From: Cupriavidus necator
GTDB lineage: Bacteria > Pseudomonadota > Gammaproteobacteria > Burkholderiales > Burkholderiaceae
Direction: 5' to 3'
DNA length: 32,000 bases
NCBI RefSeq assembly: GCF_016127575.1
Contig: NZ_CP066019.1
Coordinates: 1,260,001 to 1,292,000 of the forward strand
Each line of letters starts with the position of its first letter. The first letter of the stretch is position 1. The translations under genes were made by a program, and so were the position numbers. This document shows, piece after piece, positions 14,269 through 24,737 of the stretch. The notes below the pieces were generated by a model that worked only from the letters and a program-made list of their open reading frames with translations, was not told where the DNA came from and made no database searches.

Positions 14269-15111
14269 CTACAGCTGTGCCGCGTGGTGGCGGATGTGAT
14301 CGGCGATAAAGCTGGTGATGAAGTAGTAGCCGTGGTCGTAGCCGCTGTGCCGGCGCAGCGTCAGCGGCTGGCCGACGGCCTGGCAGGCTGCCGCGAAGGC
14401 TTCCGGATGCAGCTGGCTTTGCAGGAACTGGTCGTCCAGTCCCTGGTCGACCAGGATGCCGGCCGGGAAGGGCGCCCCATTCTGGCGTGCCATCAGTTCA
14501 CTGGCGTCGTACTCAGCCCACGCGGCGCGGTCCGTGCCGAGGTAGCCAGTGAACGCCTTCTCACCCCACGGGCAGCGTGACGGCGCGGCGATCGGCGCAA
14601 ACGCCGACACCGAGCGGAAGCGCTGCGGATGGCGCTGCGCCAGCACCAGCGCGCCGTGCCCGCCCATGGAATGCCCGAAGATGCCGACGCGGCCGGCATC
14701 GCCCGGCAAGGCGGTGGTGACCAGCCCGAACAGTTCGTCGGCCACATAGCTTTCCATGCGCCAGTACTCCTGCCACGGCGCCTCGGTGGCATCGACATAG
14801 AACCCGGCACCCACGCCGAAGTCCCAGGCATCGGCCTCGCCCGGCAGGCCCGCTCCGCGCGGGCTGGTATCGGGCGCCACCAGCATCAGGCCGTGCTCGG
14901 CGGCAAAGCGCTGCGCACCGGCCTTGATCATGAAGGTTTCCTCGGTGCAGGTCAGGCCGGCCAGGTAGAACAGCACCGGCACCTTGCCGCCTGCCTGCGC
15001 CTGCGGCGGCAGGTAGACCGAGAAACGCATCGGCAGCCCGATCGCCGTCGAATCATGGCGATAGAAGCGCTGCACGCCGCCGTGGCAGCCGTGTTGCGAG
15101 ATCAGTTCCAT
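14269..15111 (-). CDS. fghA: S-formylglutathione hydrolase (esterase D family)
   Basis: GGVQRFYRHDS, VLFYLAGLTCTEE, GHSMGGHGAL (nucleophile elbow) and GYDHGYYFI are present. It lies directly downstream of adhC. Confidence 0.93.
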   Translation of the reverse strand: MELISQHGCHGGVQRFYRHDSTAIGLPMRFSVYLPPQAQAGGKVPVLFYLAGLTCTEETFMIKAGAQRFAAEHGLMLVAPDTSPRGAGLPGEADAWDFGVGAGFYVDATEAPWQEYWRMESYVADELFGLVTTALPGDAGRVGIFGHSMGGHGALVLAQRHPQRFRSVSAFAPIAAPSRCPWGEKAFTGYLGTDRAAWAEYDASELMARQNGAPFPAGILVDQGLDDQFLQSQLHPEAFAAACQAVGQPLTLRRHSGYDHGYYFITSFIADHIRHHAAQL

Positions 15112-15124
15112 GTCGGCGCCGTCC

Positions 15125-16231
15125 TCAGTAGAGCACCACGGAGCGGATCGACTCGCCGCGCTTCATCAGGTCGAAGCCCTCGTTGATGCGCTCCAGCGGC
15201 AGCGTGTGCGTGATCAGGTCGTCGATATTGAGCTTGCCTTCCATGTACCAGTCGACGATCCTGGGCACATCGGTGCGCCCGCGCGCGCCGCCAAAGGCCG
15301 AGCCCTTCCACTCGCGCCCGGTCACCAGCTGGAACGGGCGCGTCGAGATCTCCGCGCCGGCCTCGGCCACGCCGATGATGATCGACTTGCCCCAGCCCTT
15401 GTGGCAGCACTCCAGCGCCTGGCGCATGACCTGCGTGTTGCCGATGCATTCGAACGAATAGTCTGCACCGCCGTCGGTCAGCTGGATGATGTGGTCGACC
15501 ACGTTCTCCACGTCCTTCGGGTTGATGAAGTGGGTCATGCCGAACTTGCGCGCCATGGCTTCGCGGCCCGGGTTCAGGTCCACGCCGATGATCTTGTCGG
15601 CGCCCACCATCTTGGCCGCCTGGATCACGTTCAGGCCGATGCCGCCCAGGCCAAACACCACCACGTTGGCGCCGGCTTCCACCTTGGCGGTGAACAGCAC
15701 CGCGCCCACGCCGGTGGTGACGCCGCAGCCGATGTAGCAGACCTTGTCGAACGGCGCATCCGGGCGGATCTTGGCCAGCGCGATCTCCGGCACCACGATG
15801 TGGTTGGCGAAGGTCGAGGTGCCCATGTAGTGGAAGATCGGCTTGCCGTCGATGGAAAAGCGCGAGGTGCCGTCCGGCATCAGGCCCTTGCCCTGCGTGG
15901 CGCGGATCGCCTGGCACAGGTTGGTCTTGCGCGACAGGCAGAACTTGCACTGGCGGCATTCCGGCGTGTACAGCGGGATCACGTGGTCGCCGGGCTTGAG
16001 CGAGGTCACGCCGGGGCCAACGTCGGTGACGATGCCGGCGCCCTCATGGCCCAGGATTGCCGGGAAGATGCCTTCCGGGTCGGCGCCGGACAGGGTGTAG
16101 TAATCGGTATGGCAGATGCCGGTGGCCTTGACTTCCACCAGCACTTCCCCGGCGCGCGGGCCGTCCAGGTCCACGTCTTCAATGGTCAGCGGGGCGCCGG
16201 CTTTCCAGGCGATGGCGGCTTTGGTTTTCAT
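15125..16231 (-). CDS. adhC: S-(hydroxymethyl)glutathione dehydrogenase / class III alcohol dehydrogenase
   Basis: ATGICHTDYYTLSG, GHEGAGIV, CRQCKFCLSRKTNLC and FGLGGIGL are present. There is a GGAGGA SD before the ATG at 16231. Confidence 0.94.
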   Translation of the reverse strand: MKTKAAIAWKAGAPLTIEDVDLDGPRAGEVLVEVKATGICHTDYYTLSGADPEGIFPAILGHEGAGIVTDVGPGVTSLKPGDHVIPLYTPECRQCKFCLSRKTNLCQAIRATQGKGLMPDGTSRFSIDGKPIFHYMGTSTFANHIVVPEIALAKIRPDAPFDKVCYIGCGVTTGVGAVLFTAKVEAGANVVVFGLGGIGLNVIQAAKMVGADKIIGVDLNPGREAMARKFGMTHFINPKDVENVVDHIIQLTDGGADYSFECIGNTQVMRQALECCHKGWGKSIIIGVAEAGAEISTRPFQLVTGREWKGSAFGGARGRTDVPRIVDWYMEGKLNIDDLITHTLPLERINEGFDLMKRGESIRSVVLY

Positions 16232-16990: not shown

Positions 16991-18541
16991 TTACTTCGGT
17001 TCGTTGGTGAGCACGTCACTGAGACCCAGCTTGCCTGGGTTCAGGATATTCTGCGGGTCGAGTGCCTGCTTGACCGCCGCCAGCAGCGGGAACGCCGTGT
17101 CCAGCGACGGGGCCATGTATGGCGCGCGCAACAGTCCGATTCCGTGGTGGTGGCTCAGTGCCGCATTGTATTGGATCAGCACCGCATTGGCAGCATCCCA
17201 TGCCTGGCGATACCACTTCTGGCGGTCTTCCACCGCGACCTCACCGCGCAGCGAGAAGTACAGGCAGGCGCCGTCCACATAGGCGTGCGACTGGTGCGCG
17301 GAGCCGGCGAGGGTGCCCGGCACGGCATTGATGGCCTTGACCACGTCCGCGTAGATGGCAGCCAGGTCGCGCCACGGTCCCGACATTTCGAGCGTGTCGG
17401 CGACAAAGCCGGGGCTGCGCTTGAAGCCCTCGGCGCTCTTGCCGGTCAGGTAGCGCGTGTCGAGCCAGCGCTCGAAAATGGACTCGCTGTCCAGCTTGTC
17501 ACCAAGTTCCTGGCACACGCGCTCGCTGATCGTCATCACCGCATCGACCATCTCGCGCGCCCCCTCGTCGGCAACCAGCAGGACGTTGGTGTCCGGCAGC
17601 CCGAACTGCACGCCACTCTCCAGTTCGTCATAGAGCCGCAGCGCCGCGGGATTGGCCCCGCGCTGCATGATTTCGCGGCAGGCCTCCAGGCCGATGGCAA
17701 AGGTCTTGAAGCCATAGGCGATGGCGCGCCCGTAGTCGGGCAGGCGGTGCAGCTTGAGGCGCACGCGCACGATCACGCCCAGCATGCCCTCGGACCCGAT
17801 GAACAGTTGCTGCAGATCCGGGCCCAATGCCGCGCGCGAGTAGCCGCCCACGGTGACGAGGCTGCCGTCGGCCAGCACCACATCCATGCCGAACACCATG
17901 TCCTCGATCTTGCCGTAGCGCGTGGACAACTGACCGGCGCCGCGGCAGGCTACCCATCCGCCGACCGTGCTGATCGCGTACGACGATGGCCAGTGGCCCA
18001 TCGTCATGCCGAATTCCTTCTGCACGGTCTGTTCGAAAATGTCGCCGAACATGCCGGCTTCCACGTCGACGATCTGGCTGTCCTTGTCGAATCCGACCAA
18101 CTGGTTCAGGCCGCACACGTCCAGCACGATGCCGCCGCGCACGGGCAGGGCGGCGCCCGTCACGTTGCTGCGGCCGGCCGATACGGTGACCGGAATGGCA
18201 CTGGCGCTGGCAATGCGCATGACTGCCTGCACCTGTTCCACGGTGGAAGCGCGCACGATGACCCCGCGCGGCGTGGCGGGCCTGCCGGCGGTCTCCGTGA
18301 TCATCGATCCTGCCCACCAGTCGCGCGTCCACGCCACGACGTCGGCGGTATCGGTCAGGACCTCGTCGGCCACCTTGCGCAAGGCCGCAATATCGGCCGC
18401 GCAGACGGCAATGGTGTCGCGTTGCAGGCCCGGCGCATCCGGGGTGCCCTGGATGTTCGCCGCATAGCCCGGCGGCGTGTGGGCGCCGACGACGTAGTTG
18501 CCGCGGTTGTAGCCGCGCTTGATGGCTTCCTTGCTGATCAT
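16991..18541 (-). CDS. FAD-linked oxidase, alkyl-dihydroxyacetonephosphate-synthase (AGPS)-like subfamily
   Basis: VSAGRSNVTGAALP is FAD_binding_4. HWPSSYAISTVGGWVACRGAGQLSTRYGKIEDMV resembles the AGPS-type segment. The C-terminal SHHHGIGL...LDPQNILNPGKL matches FAD-linked oxidases. It overlaps the upstream glpD-like gene by 4 bp. Confidence 0.85.
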   Translation of the reverse strand: MISKEAIKRGYNRGNYVVGAHTPPGYAANIQGTPDAPGLQRDTIAVCAADIAALRKVADEVLTDTADVVAWTRDWWAGSMITETAGRPATPRGVIVRASTVEQVQAVMRIASASAIPVTVSAGRSNVTGAALPVRGGIVLDVCGLNQLVGFDKDSQIVDVEAGMFGDIFEQTVQKEFGMTMGHWPSSYAISTVGGWVACRGAGQLSTRYGKIEDMVFGMDVVLADGSLVTVGGYSRAALGPDLQQLFIGSEGMLGVIVRVRLKLHRLPDYGRAIAYGFKTFAIGLEACREIMQRGANPAALRLYDELESGVQFGLPDTNVLLVADEGAREMVDAVMTISERVCQELGDKLDSESIFERWLDTRYLTGKSAEGFKRSPGFVADTLEMSGPWRDLAAIYADVVKAINAVPGTLAGSAHQSHAYVDGACLYFSLRGEVAVEDRQKWYRQAWDAANAVLIQYNAALSHHHGIGLLRAPYMAPSLDTAFPLLAAVKQALDPQNILNPGKLGLSDVLTNEPK

Positions 18542-20217
18542 GCTGAGTCTCCCATGAGGACGGATTTTTCGAGGGCGACGGCGGCCAGGTATTCGCTGAC
18601 CTGCCGCGCCACGGCCGCTTCGGACAATCCGAGTTCGGCCTGGAGGATCTGGCCCACCCGCGCTGCGGCGCGGGCGGAGGCATCGCGCGCCATCAGGCGG
18701 GCGCGGATGCGTCGTGACAAGACGTCGTCAACCGTGCCGGCCAGTTCATGGCGCACGGCGTAGACGATTTCGGCTTCCGTATACGGCAGGCCTTCGACGA
18801 TCGGCCTGGCAAGGGTGGCGTCCGCCTGCAGGATGTCACTGACAAAGCGCGCCTCCGTGCCATAGCGCTCGCCCAGGTGCGCGGACATGCCGCCGGATGC
18901 GACGATGGCCTGCGCGTCATAGCCAGCCGCCCCGAGCAGATAGGCCGATCTGGTCAGGCACTTGCTGCGCTTGCCGATGACCTTCTGCGCCGCATCGATG
19001 GTTTGCTCGGCCATGTGCCGCGAGGTCGTGAGCTTGCCGCCGACGATGGTCACCAGGCCGTCGTCCGCGGTATGAATCTCGTGATTGCGCTTGATTTCCA
19101 GGGTCTTGCCGCCGGGCGGCGCCACCAGCGGGCGGCACCCCGCGATGCTGCCGACCACGTCATCCGCCGTCAGGTCGGTCTTTAGTGCCGAGCGCGCGCC
19201 CTCCAGCAGGAAGTCGAGCTCCTGCCGGGTGCACATGACATTGTCGAGGTCGCCCTCATAGTCTTCGTCGGTGGTGCCGAGGTAGGACACATTGCCCCAC
19301 CGCGTGATCGTTGCCCGGCGGCTGCGCCCGGGCACCGGGATCGTCACCGTGCAGTCATTGCGGATCTTCAGCCACGGGATGGCAACGTGGACGCCCTTGG
19401 CAGGGCGAATGTGCAGGGTCCTGGCCTCGCCCTTCCTGCGGCCGGTCCAGTCGCGCAGCCAGACGCCGGTTGCCATGATGACCACGCCTGCGCGCACGCG
19501 GATCTCGCGCTCGCCGGCGTGGACAATGGCGCCATCCACCTTGCCGTGGCCGTCGCGGGTGATCTCGGCGACGGTCGCGTGATTGACCACGGCCGCTCCG
19601 TGGAACGCTGCCGTGCGCGCGATGTTCAGTGTCAGGCGGGCATCATCGACGCGCGCATCGAAGTACAGGTAGCCGCCGGTCAGATGTTCCTCATTGAAGG
19701 TCGGGCAGTGGGACAGCACCTCGGCCTTGGTCAGCTTCTGGTGCAGGATTCCCTCGCGCCAGCCACCAGCGAGGTCGTAGGTCCAGAGCAGGCTCTCGAA
19801 GGCCTTGGCGAGGCGCTTGTCGAACACGCCGTTGCGCTCCATCACCGGGAACAGGAACGGCAGCCGCTGCACCAGGTGGCGCGCGTTGCGGCGCAGGCGC
19901 TGGCGCTCCAGCAGTGAATGGCGTACCAGGCCGAGATTGCCCTGCTCGATATAGCGCAGGCCGCCGTGCACCATCTTGGATGACTTGGAAGAGGTCCCCG
20001 CGGCGAAGTCGCACTTTTCAACCAGCGCCACGCGATAGCCGCGCAAGCTGGCATCCAGCGCGGCGTAGGCGCCCGTCACGCCGCCGCCGACCACCAGGAT
20101 GTCGAACGCATCCGCCTCCAGGCGGTCGAGCAGGTCCCGGCGCACCAGCCGCAACGGCTCGGTGCTGGTCATGGCGGCGCGCTCGCGGTTAGCGCTGCGG
20201 GATGGAAAAATCACCAT
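18538..20217 (-). CDS. FAD-dependent glycerol-3-phosphate dehydrogenase/oxidase-like protein (GlpD/GlpO family)
   Basis: DILVVGGGVTGAYAALDASLRGYRVALVEKCDFAAGTSSKSSKMVHGGLRY is the canonical GlpD N-terminus. A C-terminal alpha-helical domain is present. ATG 20217 has AGGAG 11 nt upstream. ATG 20172 is an alternative start. Confidence 0.88.
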   Translation of the reverse strand: MVIFPSRSANRERAAMTSTEPLRLVRRDLLDRLEADAFDILVVGGGVTGAYAALDASLRGYRVALVEKCDFAAGTSSKSSKMVHGGLRYIEQGNLGLVRHSLLERQRLRRNARHLVQRLPFLFPVMERNGVFDKRLAKAFESLLWTYDLAGGWREGILHQKLTKAEVLSHCPTFNEEHLTGGYLYFDARVDDARLTLNIARTAAFHGAAVVNHATVAEITRDGHGKVDGAIVHAGEREIRVRAGVVIMATGVWLRDWTGRRKGEARTLHIRPAKGVHVAIPWLKIRNDCTVTIPVPGRSRRATITRWGNVSYLGTTDEDYEGDLDNVMCTRQELDFLLEGARSALKTDLTADDVVGSIAGCRPLVAPPGGKTLEIKRNHEIHTADDGLVTIVGGKLTTSRHMAEQTIDAAQKVIGKRSKCLTRSAYLLGAAGYDAQAIVASGGMSAHLGERYGTEARFVSDILQADATLARPIVEGLPYTEAEIVYAVRHELAGTVDDVLSRRIRARLMARDASARAAARVGQILQAELGLSEAAVARQVSEYLAAVALEKSVLMGDSA

Positions 20218-20235: not shown

Positions 20236-21759
20236 TTAATGGACCGCAAGCGCGTCCGCATGGTTGAGCTCGGATGCCACCCGCGCATGCCAGAGCGCGC
20301 GCCGCTGGGCGCGCTCATCGGCGCTGATCGCCGGTTCGAATACTGCGTCCGGGGTGGTGGTGGTCCGGGCCTGCTGCATGGAATCCCAAAGCAGGCCGGA
20401 CGAGCCGGCAAGGTAAGCGATGCCGCGCAGGCTGGCGCGGTCGGTCTCCTTCATGCGGTGGATGGAAATTCCGCTGAGATCCGCCTGCATCTGCAGCAGC
20501 GCATCGCTGCCGGACAAGCCGCCGCCAACCACGAGCTCCGACACCGGCACGCCCGCGATCTCCCGGTTGGCCTCGATGCAGGAAGTCACCGAATGCGCAA
20601 TGCCTTCAAGGATGGCAAAGGCCATCTCGGCCTGCGTCGTTGCCATCGAGATGCCGGTCAGTGCGGCGCGCGCCTCGGGCTGCATGCGTGGGACGCGCAG
20701 GCCGGTCAGCGCGGGAATAAAGGTCACGCCTCGTGAAGACGCAACGGTGCTGGCCAGCGCACTGATTTGCCTGGCGTTCTCGAACCAGCCGAGCTTGTCG
20801 CAGACCCAGTTGAGCGCGGAGCCGGTGGTGGCGACAAAGGTTTCGACGGAGAAATGCGACACGCCCAGTTGCCGGCGCGCGGTCATGGTCAGGGTGCTGT
20901 CCGACTTGCCGCTGCGGGCAGGAAGGTTCGGACCGACTACCAGGTCGACGAAGCTGCCGGTGCCATGCAGGCACATCGCCTGGCCGGCATCGAGACATCC
21001 CAGGCCGATTGCGCCGGCGAGCTGGTCCCCGGCACAAGCCAGGATCGGCACGTCAATCCCCAGCACGTCCGGCCGCGTGCGGCCGAAGTTGTCCGCATCC
21101 TGGCGCAGCTCAGGCAGCAGCTCGCGCGGAAAGCCAAGCGCGTCGATCCAGTCGAGCTGGTAGCGATGCCCGGTCAGTACATAGGCGTTGCAGGAAGTGG
21201 CGTTGGTCGGCGTGGTGATGCACGTGCGTGCCGTCGACAGGTGCCAAAGCAGCCAGCTGTCGATGGTGCCGAAGGCGAGCTGGCGCGCACGGAAGGCGTC
21301 AGCCACAGCCGGCGTGTCGCGCAGGTGCCGCGCCGCCCATAGGTAAGGCGAGCGCACACCGGTGGGGCGGCCGACTGCTTCGCGCAGAGTCGCGTCCCAT
21401 GCCGGCGCAAGCTGATCCAGATCGGCTGCGTATCGCGTGTCCTGCCACACCATGGCGGGTACCAGCGCACGTCCGGTCTGCGTGTCCCACAGTACCGCGG
21501 TGGCGCGCTGGGTCGCGATGGCGAGGGCGGTGACGGTCAGGTTTTCGCGGGCAGCCTGTGCCAGGGTGGCGCGGCAAACTGCCAGGGTCTTGTCGAGCAG
21601 GACGTCGGCGTCCTGCTCGACCACGCCAGGGCAGGGCGAACGGACCTCAAGCGTGGTGTACTCGAGGCACATGACATGACCGTCAGCGGCGACCACCGCT
21701 GCCCGGGTGCCTGAGGTGCCCTCATCGATCGCAAGGATGACATTTCTGCGCTGGGTCAT
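20236..21759 (-). CDS. FGGY-family carbohydrate kinase, divergent glycerol-kinase-like
   Basis: LAIDEGTSGTRAAV is the phosphate-1 motif. The protein is collinear with GlpK by eye (TQRATA, VWQDTR, GDQLAG, HGTGSF, VGGGLS). The residues equivalent to E. coli GlpK E84 and Q246 appear replaced (see findings). It overlaps the upstream MFS gene by 4 bp. Confidence 0.88.
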   Translation of the reverse strand: MTQRRNVILAIDEGTSGTRAAVVAADGHVMCLEYTTLEVRSPCPGVVEQDADVLLDKTLAVCRATLAQAARENLTVTALAIATQRATAVLWDTQTGRALVPAMVWQDTRYAADLDQLAPAWDATLREAVGRPTGVRSPYLWAARHLRDTPAVADAFRARQLAFGTIDSWLLWHLSTARTCITTPTNATSCNAYVLTGHRYQLDWIDALGFPRELLPELRQDADNFGRTRPDVLGIDVPILACAGDQLAGAIGLGCLDAGQAMCLHGTGSFVDLVVGPNLPARSGKSDSTLTMTARRQLGVSHFSVETFVATTGSALNWVCDKLGWFENARQISALASTVASSRGVTFIPALTGLRVPRMQPEARAALTGISMATTQAEMAFAILEGIAHSVTSCIEANREIAGVPVSELVVGGGLSGSDALLQMQADLSGISIHRMKETDRASLRGIAYLAGSSGLLWDSMQQARTTTTPDAVFEPAISADERAQRRALWHARVASELNHADALAVH

Positions 21760-23219
21760 GGGCGGGCCTTCTCAATCGCGGGATTCATGAAACCCGGAGC
21801 GTCCGGCACATCGCCCTTGAACTGCGGGGCATCGGCTTCATTGTCGGGGTTGATGGTGGTGCGGGTCGGGTCCCAGCGGATCGCAAAGCAGATGATGCTG
21901 GCCAGCAGCGGGACCACAGAGAGAATCAGGAAGGTGGTTTCCAGCCCATACTGTGCGCGGAACAGCGGGAACACCAGCAGGCCCAGTGCAGCGCCGATGG
22001 CGCCGAGCGCGCCGATGATGCCGTTGGCGCCCGCGCGAAGTTCGCTGCGGAAGGACAGTGACGACAGGCTTTTGCCATTCGCGCCGGGCCCGCCCGAGTG
22101 GAACAGGATGAACAGCGACGGAACCACCACTGCCATCCACATCGGCATCTTGCCGTTGAACAGGCCCAGGATCAGCAGCATGGCGAATACCGCCGCAAAG
22201 CCGAACGCCGAGGCGCGGCGCAGGCCCAGCTTGCGGCCTATCAAGGGCGAGAGGAAGCCGCCAAAGATGCCGCAGACGTTGAAAACCAGCGCGCCGATGG
22301 TCGCGTAGACAAAGTCCTTGCCGAACAGGGCCGCACTGATCAGCGGCAGGTACCAGCCGATCGCGAAGTACTGGATCGACTGCCCGATCTGCACGGTGGC
22401 CGCCAGCACGGTGCGCGGCAGGTAGACGCCGCGGAAGATCAGCAGAACGTTGGCCAGGCCGCGGCGCGCCTGGTTGAGGACGGGGATGCGTTCCGCGGGC
22501 GGGGCGGCAACGAACTCACGTCCGTAGATGCGCGTCATGGCGTGTGCGGCGGCATCGAGCAATTCCTTGCGTGCCAGCCAGATCGGGCTTTCCACCAGGA
22601 ACAGGCCCTGCAGCAGCAGGATGACCACGCCGAAGACCGCGGTGGCTGCCACCGAGTAGCGCCAGATCGTATCGCCAACGTCCCAGGAGTAGAACAGCAG
22701 TGCCAGCAGCAGGTTGGAGCAGACGGCCGTGTACCACATGCCTTGCCACGTGTTCAGCCGACTCTTGAGTTTCACCGGCGTGAACTCCGCCAGCACCGCC
22801 ATGGCGATGGCAAAGTCGATGCCGTAGGCCGCGCCGACAAAGAAGCGACCAGCCAGGATCACCTCGAAGCCGGGGGCAAACACCACCAGCAATGCGCCGG
22901 CCACGGCCAGGACCTTGGCGAGAACCAGCGGGCGGACGCGGCCCCAGCGGTCGGCCATCCAGCCGCCGATAGGGTTGAAGGCAATGGCCACCCAGGAGGC
23001 AAACGAGGTCAACAGGGCGACCTTTGCAGGCGCGAGTTGAAGGTTGCGCGTCATCGGCCCGAGGCCGGCGCTCAGCGCAGAATTGGAAAACGCGTCAAGG
23101 AATAGCCCGCCGAGTGCGAGCCACCAGATGACACCGGCCCTGCCGCGAATGCCCGGGCAGGAATCTATGTAGGCAATGACATCATCGATGCCACGAATCT
23201 TGATGGCAGAGTGTTGCAC
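21756..23219 (-). CDS. MFS transporter, sugar-porter-like
   Basis: It has about 12 predicted hydrophobic spans. GGWMADRWGRVRP is MFS motif A. VESPIWLARK is the sugar-porter-type loop motif. The GTG start at 23219 has an AGGAG SD at 23230-23226. Confidence 0.85.
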   Translation of the reverse strand: MQHSAIKIRGIDDVIAYIDSCPGIRGRAGVIWWLALGGLFLDAFSNSALSAGLGPMTRNLQLAPAKVALLTSFASWVAIAFNPIGGWMADRWGRVRPLVLAKVLAVAGALLVVFAPGFEVILAGRFFVGAAYGIDFAIAMAVLAEFTPVKLKSRLNTWQGMWYTAVCSNLLLALLFYSWDVGDTIWRYSVAATAVFGVVILLLQGLFLVESPIWLARKELLDAAAHAMTRIYGREFVAAPPAERIPVLNQARRGLANVLLIFRGVYLPRTVLAATVQIGQSIQYFAIGWYLPLISAALFGKDFVYATIGALVFNVCGIFGGFLSPLIGRKLGLRRASAFGFAAVFAMLLILGLFNGKMPMWMAVVVPSLFILFHSGGPGANGKSLSSLSFRSELRAGANGIIGALGAIGAALGLLVFPLFRAQYGLETTFLILSVVPLLASIICFAIRWDPTRTTINPDNEADAPQFKGDVPDAPGFMNPAIEKARP

Positions 23220-23227
23220 GGCGGTCT

Positions 23228-23298
23228 CCTCTTATTTGTTCTGTAAGAGGCCGCAGCAACTGCAAGGCGCGAAGAGACCATCTTACAGATGGTCTCTT
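23228..23298 (-). promoter_or_regulatory. Structured 5' leader of the MFS-kinase-glpD-oxidase-glpP operon (two hairpins; the second overlaps the SD)
   Basis: HP1 is a perfect 12-bp stem with a 3-nt loop at 23272-23298 (AAGAGACCATCT/AGATGGTCTCTT). HP2 pairs CCTCTTA (23228-23234) with TAAGAGG (23244-23250) across a 9-nt loop. One HP2 arm overlaps the SD by 3 nt. Confidence 0.5.
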
Positions 23299-23316
23299 AT
23301 CTAGATCTGCGTGACC

Positions 23317-23345
23317 AATGTATGGCTTCGCAGGCACAGCGTCAA
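23317..23345 (-). promoter_or_regulatory. Putative sigma70-type promoter of the five-gene operon
   Basis: On the minus strand, TTGACG (23345-23340), a 17-nt spacer, then TACATT (23322-23317). It sits about 90-100 nt upstream of the GTG start. Confidence 0.5.
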
Positions 23346-23366
23346 CCGGGAAAACCCTTGTCCCGG
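23346..23366 (-). terminator. Weak stem-loop just after the stop of the Npt1/TLC-like transporter gene
   Basis: CCGGGA N9 TCCCGG, followed by only TT on the minus strand. It directly abuts the putative -35 of the next operon. Confidence 0.3.
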
Positions 23367-23369
23367 GCA

Positions 23370-24737
23370 TTAGCGTGCAGCGGTATTTCCCACTGCACGG
23401 CTGAGGCTGGCATCCGGCGGTCGCAACTGCCCCTCATGCCGCCGCCCCAGCCACCAGCCCAGCCCCGCCCACACCAGCGCCAGCACGGCGCCAGCCAGCG
23501 CCACCGTGGCGGGATGGCCCGACAGCGCATCGATCGCCGTCTTGACCCACGCACTGACCGCATCGCCCGCACGGTAGACCGCGGTGTCAATCACGTTCTT
23601 GGCCTTGTACTTGGTCTCGGGATCGACCACGGTGAACAGCATCTCGCGCCCGGGGCGCAGCAGCGCGTATTCGCCCACGCGCCGCAGGATCATCACGCCG
23701 GCCAGCACGCCGAAGGTCGGCAGCATCGCCAGCACGAGAAAGCCGCAGGTCACCGCCAGCGGCACCGCGGTCAGCAGCACGGTGACGCCATAGCGGCGCG
23801 CGATGCGGCCGGTGAAGAAGAGCTGGACCAGGATGGTCAGCGCCTGCACGGTAGCATCCAGCGCGCTGAAGACCTGGGTCTGGCGGGTGCGCTCCGGGAA
23901 GGCCTCGGCCACCAGCCGCGCCTGCTCGAAATACAGGAAGGTGCTGGCCGTGGCCAGCAGGATCACGAACAGGCCGATGCCAAGCAGGTAGCGCGAGCGC
24001 AGCAGCAGCGACAGCCCGGCCAGCAGCCCGCCGCCGATGGGGTTGGCCGGATCCTGCGCCGCGCCGGCCGGGGCTTCGCCCGGCTGCACCACGCCCGCGC
24101 CGGCGCGGCGGCGCCAGCCGAACAGCCAGCCCACGCCCGGCAGCGTTGCGGCCAGCAGCGCTGCCGACAGCAGCATCAGCCCGGTCAGGCCGATCTGCGG
24201 CACCAGCCAGCCGCCCAGCACGGGGCCGGCCAGCCCGCCCGCGCTGGCGCCGGCGGCCAGCAATGCGAACAGCCGGCGCGCCTGCTCGGGGCGGAACACA
24301 TCGGCCATCAGGCTCCATGCCACGGACACCACGAACAGGTTGAACACCGACAGCCACACATAGAACACGCGCGCCAGCCAGACGTTGTCAGGCAGGGCGC
24401 GAGTGGCCAGCGCAAAGCCAAGCAGGTTGGCGATAAAGAAGGCGTACACCCAGGGCACGAAGCGGCGCCGCGGCAGCCACGCGCAGACCGCGCCGTACAG
24501 CGGGATCGCGGCCAGCATCACGACAAAGGTGGCGGTGAACAGCCACTGCAGGTTCTTCACGCCGCCGGCAATGCCCATGGTCTCGCGCACCGGGCGCAGC
24601 ATGAAATAGCTGGCGAACAGGCAGAAGAAAAACAGGAAGCCGGCCACCACGGCGCCGGTCTCGCCGGGGCGGATGCCGAAGCCGCGCCGCAGCCGGGCCA
24701 GGCCGCCGGCAGGCGCCTCGCGCGCGGGATCGTCCAC
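23370..24737 (-). CDS. MFS-superfamily transporter resembling the Npt1/TLC (ATP:ADP antiporter-like) family
   Basis: It is polytopic. The N-terminal FFFCLFASYFMLRPVRETMG and FYVWLSVFNLFVVSVAWSLMADVFRPEQARRLFALLAAGASAGG parallel, by eye, the Tlc segments NYSTLRSIKD and FY..ELW....SLLFW.FAN.I....EAKRFY..FG. It has a GTG start 13 nt after the AKR stop. Confidence 0.7.
   Translation of the reverse strand: MDDPAREAPAGGLARLRRGFGIRPGETGAVVAGFLFFFCLFASYFMLRPVRETMGIAGGVKNLQWLFTATFVVMLAAIPLYGAVCAWLPRRRFVPWVYAFFIANLLGFALATRALPDNVWLARVFYVWLSVFNLFVVSVAWSLMADVFRPEQARRLFALLAAGASAGGLAGPVLGGWLVPQIGLTGLMLLSAALLAATLPGVGWLFGWRRRAGAGVVQPGEAPAGAAQDPANPIGGGLLAGLSLLLRSRYLLGIGLFVILLATASTFLYFEQARLVAEAFPERTRQTQVFSALDATVQALTILVQLFFTGRIARRYGVTVLLTAVPLAVTCGFLVLAMLPTFGVLAGVMILRRVGEYALLRPGREMLFTVVDPETKYKAKNVIDTAVYRAGDAVSAWVKTAIDALSGHPATVALAGAVLALVWAGLGWWLGRRHEGQLRPPDASLSRAVGNTAAR

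Follow-up and report, generated by a model that had tools for sequence, protein, structure and literature searches.

A conserved RNA leader of a five-gene catabolic operon in Cupriavidus necator, probably switched by the operon's GlpP homolog

Results

Here we describe the leader of a five-gene catabolic operon in Cupriavidus necator, read from a 32,000-nucleotide stretch of contig NZ_CP066019.1 (positions 1,260,001 to 1,292,000; hereafter the window, in whose numbering positions are given). The leader is the untranslated start of the operon on the minus strand (23310-23217, about 90 nucleotides (nt)), and it is probably a GlpP-type cis-regulatory RNA that is switched by the GlpP homolog encoded in the same operon. 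A preliminary description had proposed that the leader is riboregulatory and probably the target of this homolog, and the proposal is supported by conservation that begins at the predicted transcript start, covariation on the sense strand, the same design built from other bases in Amycolatopsis, co-occurrence with GlpP, and likeness to the Bacillus subtilis glpD leader. A terminator-less GlpP-type leader is undescribed in Rfam and in the literature we searched, and no literature on GlpP in Burkholderiales was found there.

Structure of the leader

The leader folds at -43.1 kcal/mol (z = -5.7), and 0 of 200 shuffled sequences fold as well. Its most prominent element is hairpin 1 (HP1), a perfect 12-base-pair (bp) stem of AAGAGACCAUCU and AGAUGGUCUCUU around a GUA loop. 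HP1 was confirmed where it had been described, at about +13 to +39 of the predicted transcript, and no other perfect 12-bp inverted repeat with a short loop occurs in the window. As a 27-mer it is found nowhere else in the 7.4-Mb genome (three contigs, with the window on contig 2), and no further leader copies or regulon were found in this genome with the 27-mer at up to 3 mismatches or with a covariance model (R1).

The apex of HP1, UCUGUAAGA (23289-23281), is exactly complementary to UCUUACAGA (23248-23240). This pairing had also been claimed before and holds; the 9-mer occurs exactly twice in the window, once per strand, versus 0.01 expected. The downstream complement is part of a stretch that we call block C, within which GGCCUCU/CCUCUUA is also the arm of a second hairpin, HP2, that opposes the Shine-Dalgarno (SD) sequence. 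HP2 had been drawn as CCUCUUA (23250-23244) paired with UAAGAGG, overlapping the AGGAG SD. The hairpin is present as drawn, but its register is not general: it occurs in this genome and its three closest Cupriavidus relatives only, with a 6-bp form in Achromobacter, and the SD-side arm of other leaders reads AAAGGAG, UAAGGAG or GGAGGCC. A more general anti-SD helix, GGCCUCU:GGAGRCC, is possible, and it is 84% paired. The GGAG of the SD is paired in almost all free folds (median unpaired probability of 0.02, versus 0.47 in this genome), and by these folding models some sequestration of the SD by block C is general.

An outer helix, P0, is probable. Its 5′ strand is GCAG (23310-23307) and its partner lies 3′ of HP1; the helix has 5-7 bp in Burkholderia, Paraburkholderia, Mycetohabitans, Variovorax and part of genus g124, and a weak 4 bp in Cupriavidus. 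Between HP1 and block C lies a variable linker of about 22 nt to roughly 90 nt or more, whose sequence differs by genus. It carries a small hairpin in which we noted, by eye, an A-U to G-C exchange. The linker also holds CCUUGCAG (23259-23266, minus strand), a partial second copy of block C found only in the closest Cupriavidus species. In constrained folds it pairs with the HP1 apex over 7 bp, and it may act as a decoy or intermediate partner of the apex.

No terminator-like site was found in 23000-23600; HP1 is followed directly by CGCGCC, with no U-tract. A permissive Rfam scan of 22900-23700 gave no relevant match (best E >4, far below gathering scores). A leader peptide was considered and rejected: the sole AUG of the leader lies in the 3′ arm of HP1, has no SD, and is in a frame that the variable linker breaks elsewhere.

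Conservation and covariation

Aligned leaders show where the conserved element begins. The promoter, TTGACG and TACATT with a 17-nt spacer, is present as had been stated and is the sole sigma-70-like match within 23000-23600. TTGAC and TAnnnT stand at constant spacing in 34 aligned leaders from four genera, and comparable hexamers stand ahead of the leaders of Achromobacter, Variovorax and the actinomycetes. The sequence of the spacer is freely variable, as is that of the upstream flank, and the DNA 5′ of the -35 box is unrelated between betaproteobacterial lineages. Conservation restarts 7 nt past the -10 box, at (G/A)CAG, and continues up to the start codon in all the Betaproteobacteria compared; the CAG near the predicted 5′ end is invariant in 66 leaders. 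Directly abutting the -35 box is GGGTTTTCCCGG (23346-23357, minus strand), which is kept in most Cupriavidus leaders and, in a similar form, in Verminephrobacter, despite unrelated DNA beyond it. An UP-like element, an activator site and a small insulating hairpin are all possible readings of it.

Between about +1 and the start codon, the leader is near-invariant in 23 Cupriavidus genomes and 11 genomes of three genera, and likewise in Herbaspirillum and Undibacterium. Genera with the leader also include Burkholderia, Paraburkholderia and Mycetohabitans, and the leaders of Achromobacter, Variovorax, Verminephrobacter and a Comamonadaceae-like genus are diverged yet recognizable. Across the Betaproteobacteria the sole break in this near-invariance is the variable linker. 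Read from the alignments, such a pattern marks a transcribed functional element that travels with the operon.

The preliminary description had called for a covariation check in orthologous leaders, and we found both conservation and covarying pairs in HP1 and in the helix between the apex and block C. All 59 leaders of the first alignment form the upper 10 pairs of HP1. Among 66 leaders, pair 3 is a G-C in 51 and an A-U in 9, and the other variable pairs change exclusively from C-G to U·G or from U-A to U·G, as read on the sense strand. The apex:block C helix comprises 11 pairs with one bulge, and in the 66-leader alignment standard pairs fill 99.4% of its 726 cells, compared with 39-59% after displacement of the partner by 1-3 columns. 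There is variation in five internal pairs, and at the terminal pair the only changes are mismatches. One internal pair runs through the full series U-A, U·G and C-G (the last in Verminephrobacter), and a second through A-U, G·U and G-C (the last in one species of genus g124). Since both of these pairs use bases of the HP1 loop, they support the long-range helix and not HP1. By parsimony, at least 21 changes have occurred in 10 internal pairs, each to another standard pair and none to A·C; the tree was built from the first 321 nt of the transporter gene and is short, so the count may be inflated. Even half of 21 changes would be unlikely to pass without any A·C outcome if the strands did not pair. 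The regular expression used for cutting out leaders allowed only purines at two block C positions, and it rejected no Burkholderiales match.

The same data bear on whether HP1 works as DNA. The preliminary description had offered a repressor operator as its fallback, and a dimeric repressor could in principle bind the 12-3-12 palindrome past the promoter together with the second, inverted 9-mer 33 bp away; HP1 is a perfect palindrome, and both 9-mers are quasi-palindromes (TCT-nnn-AGA), the usual form of an operator. The asymmetries, however, are G·U-compatible on the sense strand only, with no A·C among approximately 44 non-Watson-Crick cells. When the 9-mers change they retain complementarity rather than identity, and the spacing between them varies with the linker. 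Conservation spans the whole transcribed leader and not the palindrome alone, and no DNA-binding regulator is conserved beside the operon. The compensatory and wobble-only changes on the sense strand, in HP1 as in the apex:block C helix, therefore point to RNA rather than a DNA operator, which we consider very improbable; the wobble pattern, the variable spacing and the absence of a conserved regulator nearby each disfavor it. Compensatory changes and conservation confined to the transcribed region, the general criteria for a structured cis-regulatory RNA, were both found.

The same design in Amycolatopsis

Amycolatopsis carries the same operon, and its leader has an HP1-like stem of ACGAAGA(G)CC and GGUCUUCGU with the loop ACUGUCAGC. 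The HP1-like loop sequence CUGUCAGC has an exact 8-nt complement, GCUGACAG, about 35 nt downstream, and it overlaps the 5′ arm of a hairpin extending to the AUG. By our own estimate, an exact 8-mer complement within about 50 nt has a chance probability of <0.001. Relative to Cupriavidus, the Amycolatopsis leader adds two A-U to C-G exchanges to the apex:block C pairing. Its 9-nt loop suggests that the long-range helix could coexist with the lower part of HP1 as a pseudoknot; alternatively, the helix would take the place of HP1.

In Amycolatopsis, HP1 and the outer helix are followed by U6. U-tracts likewise follow the hairpin in Nocardia (U6), a metagenome contig (U4) and a betaproteobacterium-like metagenome-assembled genome (MAG; U7), with P0 and HP1 abutting them. 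Because of these U-tracts in the actinomycete, contig and MAG homologs, the terminator form looks ancestral, with Cupriavidus a derivative that keeps the hairpin and the SD-linked pairing. The loop complements in Nocardia and one metagenome contig (L174) are partial (6 bp), and another metagenome contig (L173, GlpP 38% identical) has a different long hairpin and an unrecognizable leader; we took none of these as support.

Co-occurrence with GlpP

Among 78 Cupriavidus species genomes, 23 have the leader, and the same 23 have a full-length GlpP gene; one additional genome has a GlpP fragment at a contig end only. A search that used GlpP and took no account of the leader recovered the five-gene operon from three further genera of the family, with the leader present in 11/11 genomes. 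Scanning 185,579 species genomes for the leader pattern brought in Herbaspirillum and Undibacterium; it also gave approximately 35 matches in unrelated taxa, all without the downstream block, a number in line with chance for a 17-mer. Protein searches placed the operon in Achromobacter, Variovorax, Verminephrobacter and one further Comamonadaceae-like genus (11/77 genomes), and more distant copies in Nocardia (GlpP 48% identical) and Amycolatopsis (43% identical). In two other genera of the family the operon was found in 5/45 and 2/45 genomes, and wide draws gave a low yield (5/401 genomes order-wide, 1/301 in the family of genome G666). No leader was found that lacked a GlpP gene in its operon. 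Conversely, all other operon copies with upstream DNA to read have the leader, except the three most distant, where it is partial or unrecognizable.

Occurrence is patchy, and the genomic context around the operon, promoter and leader is unrelated between lineages. This suggests that the operon is a self-contained module that has been repeatedly transferred horizontally. The neighbors differ in every lineage, and no regulator gene is conserved beside the operon.

Energetics and a possible switch

Calculated energies place the alternative states close together. Closed HP1 contributes -16.7 kcal/mol, and pairing of block C with the SD about -11.7 kcal/mol. Opening upper HP1 costs about 7 kcal/mol; with the upper part or all of HP1 open, the duplex of the apex and 3′ arm with block C yields about -15.7 kcal/mol. 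Together, HP1 and HP2 amount to about -28 kcal/mol versus about -25 kcal/mol for lower HP1 with the alternative helix. The preliminary description had held that the alternative pairing would free the SD. When the 5′ arm of HP1 was blocked in silico, 52/66 leaders switched to the apex:block C helix and the unpaired probability of the SD rose from 0.02 to 0.53, which is consistent with that claim across the set, but the leader of this genome itself is thermodynamically ambiguous.

A constitutive role is an alternative: a 5′ stem-loop or pseudoknot could stabilize the mRNA or fix a low level of transporter translation, with induction taking place elsewhere. HP1 begins about 13 nt from the predicted 5′ end, the outer helix can pair the very 5′ end, and structure and covariation by themselves are no proof of switching. 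In B. subtilis, GlpP and the glpD leader are described as influencing mRNA stability as well (Glatz et al. 1996, as cited in PMC10573289). Against a constitutive element stand the two mutually exclusive partners that block C retains from genus to genus, in Amycolatopsis even though the sequence differs. Nor is any other regulator gene conserved beside the operon, and a terminator-like U-tract follows the hairpin in the actinomycetes and one MAG. We therefore judge a purely constitutive element unlikely.

Comparison with the glpD leader and other systems

The GlpP protein of B. subtilis, together with glycerol-3-phosphate, overcomes a terminator in the leaders of glpD, glpFK and glpTQ (PMC9604022, PMC10573289). 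We compared the present leader with the glpD 5′ untranslated region (sequence from Table S4 of PMC9604022). The glpD terminator stem opens with AGAGACCA and closes with UGGUCUCU, eight pairs identical to those at the foot of HP1, and its apex contains UGUAAG, identical to the HP1 apex. The segment 5′ of the glpD hairpin, GAGAUGAGG, resembles UAGAUAAG here; both are purine-rich and of the form AGAU(R)AG. On the 3′ side glpD has UUUAC...ACAA...AGGAGG, and here too a UUAC-containing block and an SD follow. A global alignment of the two leaders beats 993/1000 shuffles. In both organisms a PF04309 protein is encoded with kinase and FAD (flavin adenine dinucleotide)-dehydrogenase genes.

The two leaders also differ. 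The glpD hairpin is a 26-bp intrinsic terminator with a U-tract, whereas HP1 has 12 bp and no U-tract. The apex complement that overlaps the anti-SD comprises 9-13 bp here and, by eye, at most about 5 bp in glpD. Unlike in B. subtilis, glpP is the last gene of the regulated operon and would be autoregulated. Of the marks of a glpD-type system, a PF04309 gene within the regulon and a similar promoter-proximal hairpin are thus present, and an intrinsic terminator is absent.

The ygc cluster of Escherichia coli has a related gene set (a major facilitator superfamily (MFS) transporter, an FGGY kinase, the YgcU-type flavoprotein and the GlpP-like YgcP), with YgcP 24% identical to the GlpP homolog and YgcU 30% identical to the product of gene 4. 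Unlike here, the E. coli genes form several operons with extra electron-transfer genes. The divergent leaders of ygcW and yqcE(-ygcE) have long, strong hairpins with U8-9 tracts, which are classic terminators (L177 11270-11600, K-12 intergenic). They carry AGAGACC or AGAGAUAA, followed by a YUUAC(R)(R)AA block before the SD, as here. The covariance model aligns with the ygcW leader end-to-end at 9 bits, with E about 1; this is the second-best match in 17 kb and is not significant alone. We regard the resemblance as a consistent lead and not as proof of homology.

The layout is also that of leaders that sequester the SD, such as translational riboswitches and protein-dependent operators: the anti-SD has two exclusive partners, and the SD is predicted to be paired in the default fold. 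The leader differs from SD-sequestering riboswitches in having no Rfam family and in its likely effector, a GlpP-family protein with a triosephosphate isomerase (TIM) barrel fold rather than a metabolite alone. A protein-independent riboswitch deserves mention nonetheless, in which a pseudoknot of HP1 and block C would bind a small molecule, for example a phosphorylated intermediate, and gate the SD, with the GlpP-like protein an enzyme or unrelated regulator. The RNA is compact and extremely conserved, including its unpaired stretches, and its loop pairs downstream over the anti-SD, as in the small pseudoknot riboswitches of the preQ1-II and SAM-II classes. In addition, the TIM barrel of PF04309, known to us from structure titles, is potentially catalytic. 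Such a riboswitch would nevertheless have the same hairpin base and apex as the glpD leader of B. subtilis, which requires the GlpP protein, and the leader was never seen apart from a GlpP gene in its operon. The element is also small, with few junction nucleotides for a ligand pocket, and it has no Rfam match. A protein-independent riboswitch therefore seems improbable to us, at about the level of the constitutive element or marginally below. It is the glpD likeness, the strict linkage to glpP and the two partners of block C that make these two explanations less likely than control by GlpP.

The operon and its surroundings

Coordinates of the leader elements and operon genes are collected in Table 1. 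The five genes are closely packed on the minus strand, and the operon is of a sugar-alcohol type. Its enzymes and the transporter all fall under the NCBIfam (glycerol) equivalog cut-offs.

Table 1 Elements of the leader and genes of the operon in the window
Feature	Coordinates	Strand	Basis
Promoter: -35 TTGACG (23345-23340), 17-nt spacer, -10 TACATT (23322-23317)	23317..23345	minus	Sequence reading
Predicted mRNA 5′ end and conserved single-stranded segment GCAGAUCUAGAU	23299..23310	minus	Conservation pattern; start inferred
HP1, perfect 12-bp hairpin AAGAGACCAUCU-GUA-AGAUGGUCUCUU	23272..23298	minus	Sequence and folding
HP1 apex UCUGUAAGA, upper 3 pairs and GUA loop; strand of the alternative/pseudoknot helix	23281..23289	minus	Complement at 23248-23240
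Variable linker with small hairpin GCAG-UUG-CUGC (23263-23253)	23253..23271	minus	Sequence comparison
Block C GGCCUCUUACAGAA, includes UCUUACAGA (23248-23240)	23239..23252	minus	Nearly invariant
SD-side arm UAAGAGG (23234-23228), SD AGGAG (23230-23226), GTG start (23219-23217)	23217..23234	minus	Sequence and folding
Gene 1, MFS sugar-porter-type transporter	21756..23219	minus	Pfam MFS_1 and Sugar_tr
Gene 2, FGGY-family kinase, GlpK-like, under equivalog cut-off	20236..21759	minus	Profile search
Gene 3, GlpD-like FAD dehydrogenase	18538..20217	minus	Pfam DAO and DAO_C; below NCBIfam cut-offs
Gene 4, FAD-linked oxidase (AGPS-like flavoprotein), 30% identical to E. coli YgcU	16991..18541	minus	
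Gene 5, GlpP-family protein, PF04309	16401..16985	minus	Pfam E = 1.4e-49; Listeria GlpP structure 3KTS, E = 6e-18

In every lineage glpP is the last gene of the same operon; in the actinomycete-type operons it is followed by a gene that encodes a monooxygenase-like protein of the ABM family (PF03992; L171 8643-8945, L172 8591-8875, L174 8614-8928). The betaproteobacterial operons lack a PF03992 gene in this position. Approximately 170 nt from glpP, on the 3′ side of the operon (14269-16231, minus strand), lie genes for a zinc-type alcohol dehydrogenase and an S-formylglutathione-hydrolase-type esterase, probably a separate formaldehyde-detoxification pair. Small-genome members of the order (G510, G792; L151 10409-11005, L152) encode distant GlpP homologs of 22-26% identity in another gene context. 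A weak covariance-model match in this set lies inside an open reading frame and was taken as chance.

Discussion

Taken together, we favor a GlpP-type cis-regulatory RNA that is switched by the GlpP homolog of the operon, and we hold this with somewhat better than even confidence. Several points weigh against it. To our knowledge, RNA binding by the GlpP family is documented in B. subtilis only; we know of GlpP-type antitermination experiments in Bacillus alone, with the RNA recognition element poorly defined. The GlpP homolog here is approximately 25-30% identical to Firmicute GlpP proteins, and it might even be a pathway enzyme. In this genome, the alternative helix is not the best fold when the 5′ arm of HP1 is blocked. 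Three states lie within 2 kcal/mol, and these include the apex paired with the CCUUGCAG decoy and the 3′ arm of HP1 paired with the SD; the latter, near-isoenergetic here, would have the opposite logic. For the general anti-SD helix no covariation was seen, and the pair at its center is a C·A in 44/59 leaders. Changes in the core of the apex:block C helix are mostly one-sided (wobble), with double changes in one leader per betaproteobacterial series and in Amycolatopsis. The column-shuffle test is moderately strong only, as 16/500 shuffles reached the observed values, and it was run on related sequences. Some of the leaders were gathered with a pattern that fixes 17 nt of HP1, and in these variation there is under-sampled. 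Finally, no transcription-start data for C. necator were found in the literature searched.

If GlpP does act on this leader, the switch could work as follows. In the uninduced state HP1 would be closed and block C would cover the SD, keeping translation of the transporter gene low; in lineages with a U-tract after HP1, transcription would also halt there. Once the kinase yields its phosphorylated product, the GlpP homolog would bind the AGAU(A/G)AG...AGAGACC side of HP1. Occupying the 5′ side of HP1 would free the apex and 3′ arm for block C, and release of the SD would lead to expression of the whole operon, glpP included. Given that there is no U-tract in Cupriavidus, control there is probably translational; the switch would set translation, with mRNA stability or Rho-dependent polarity as further possible targets, and would leave intrinsic termination aside.

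A broader proposal, which we put forward tentatively and regard as possible but rather less than even in its chances, is that the GlpP family was re-purposed in Betaproteobacteria from terminator control to translational control. A one-sided contact with the hairpin would free its apex to capture the anti-SD, or would stabilize a pseudoknot of loop and anti-SD. One contact between protein and RNA would thus control the access of ribosomes, and no intrinsic terminator would be needed. The leader would then have moved with its operon between Actinomycetes and Proteobacteria.

For the GlpP family, the leader provides a short, extremely conserved RNA target with invariant bases (AGAU-R-AG, AGAGACC and UGUAAG) and a covarying long-range helix. 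It is present in well-studied Gram-negatives, including Cupriavidus necator-like strains, Burkholderia and Variovorax, as well as in actinomycetes. The reading of RNA by GlpP-family proteins and the inducer of a widespread operon both become testable with it. The glpD leader has been used as an inducible element in Bacillus (PMC9604022), and the leader described here may likewise serve as a compact, portable inducible element for the engineering of Cupriavidus.

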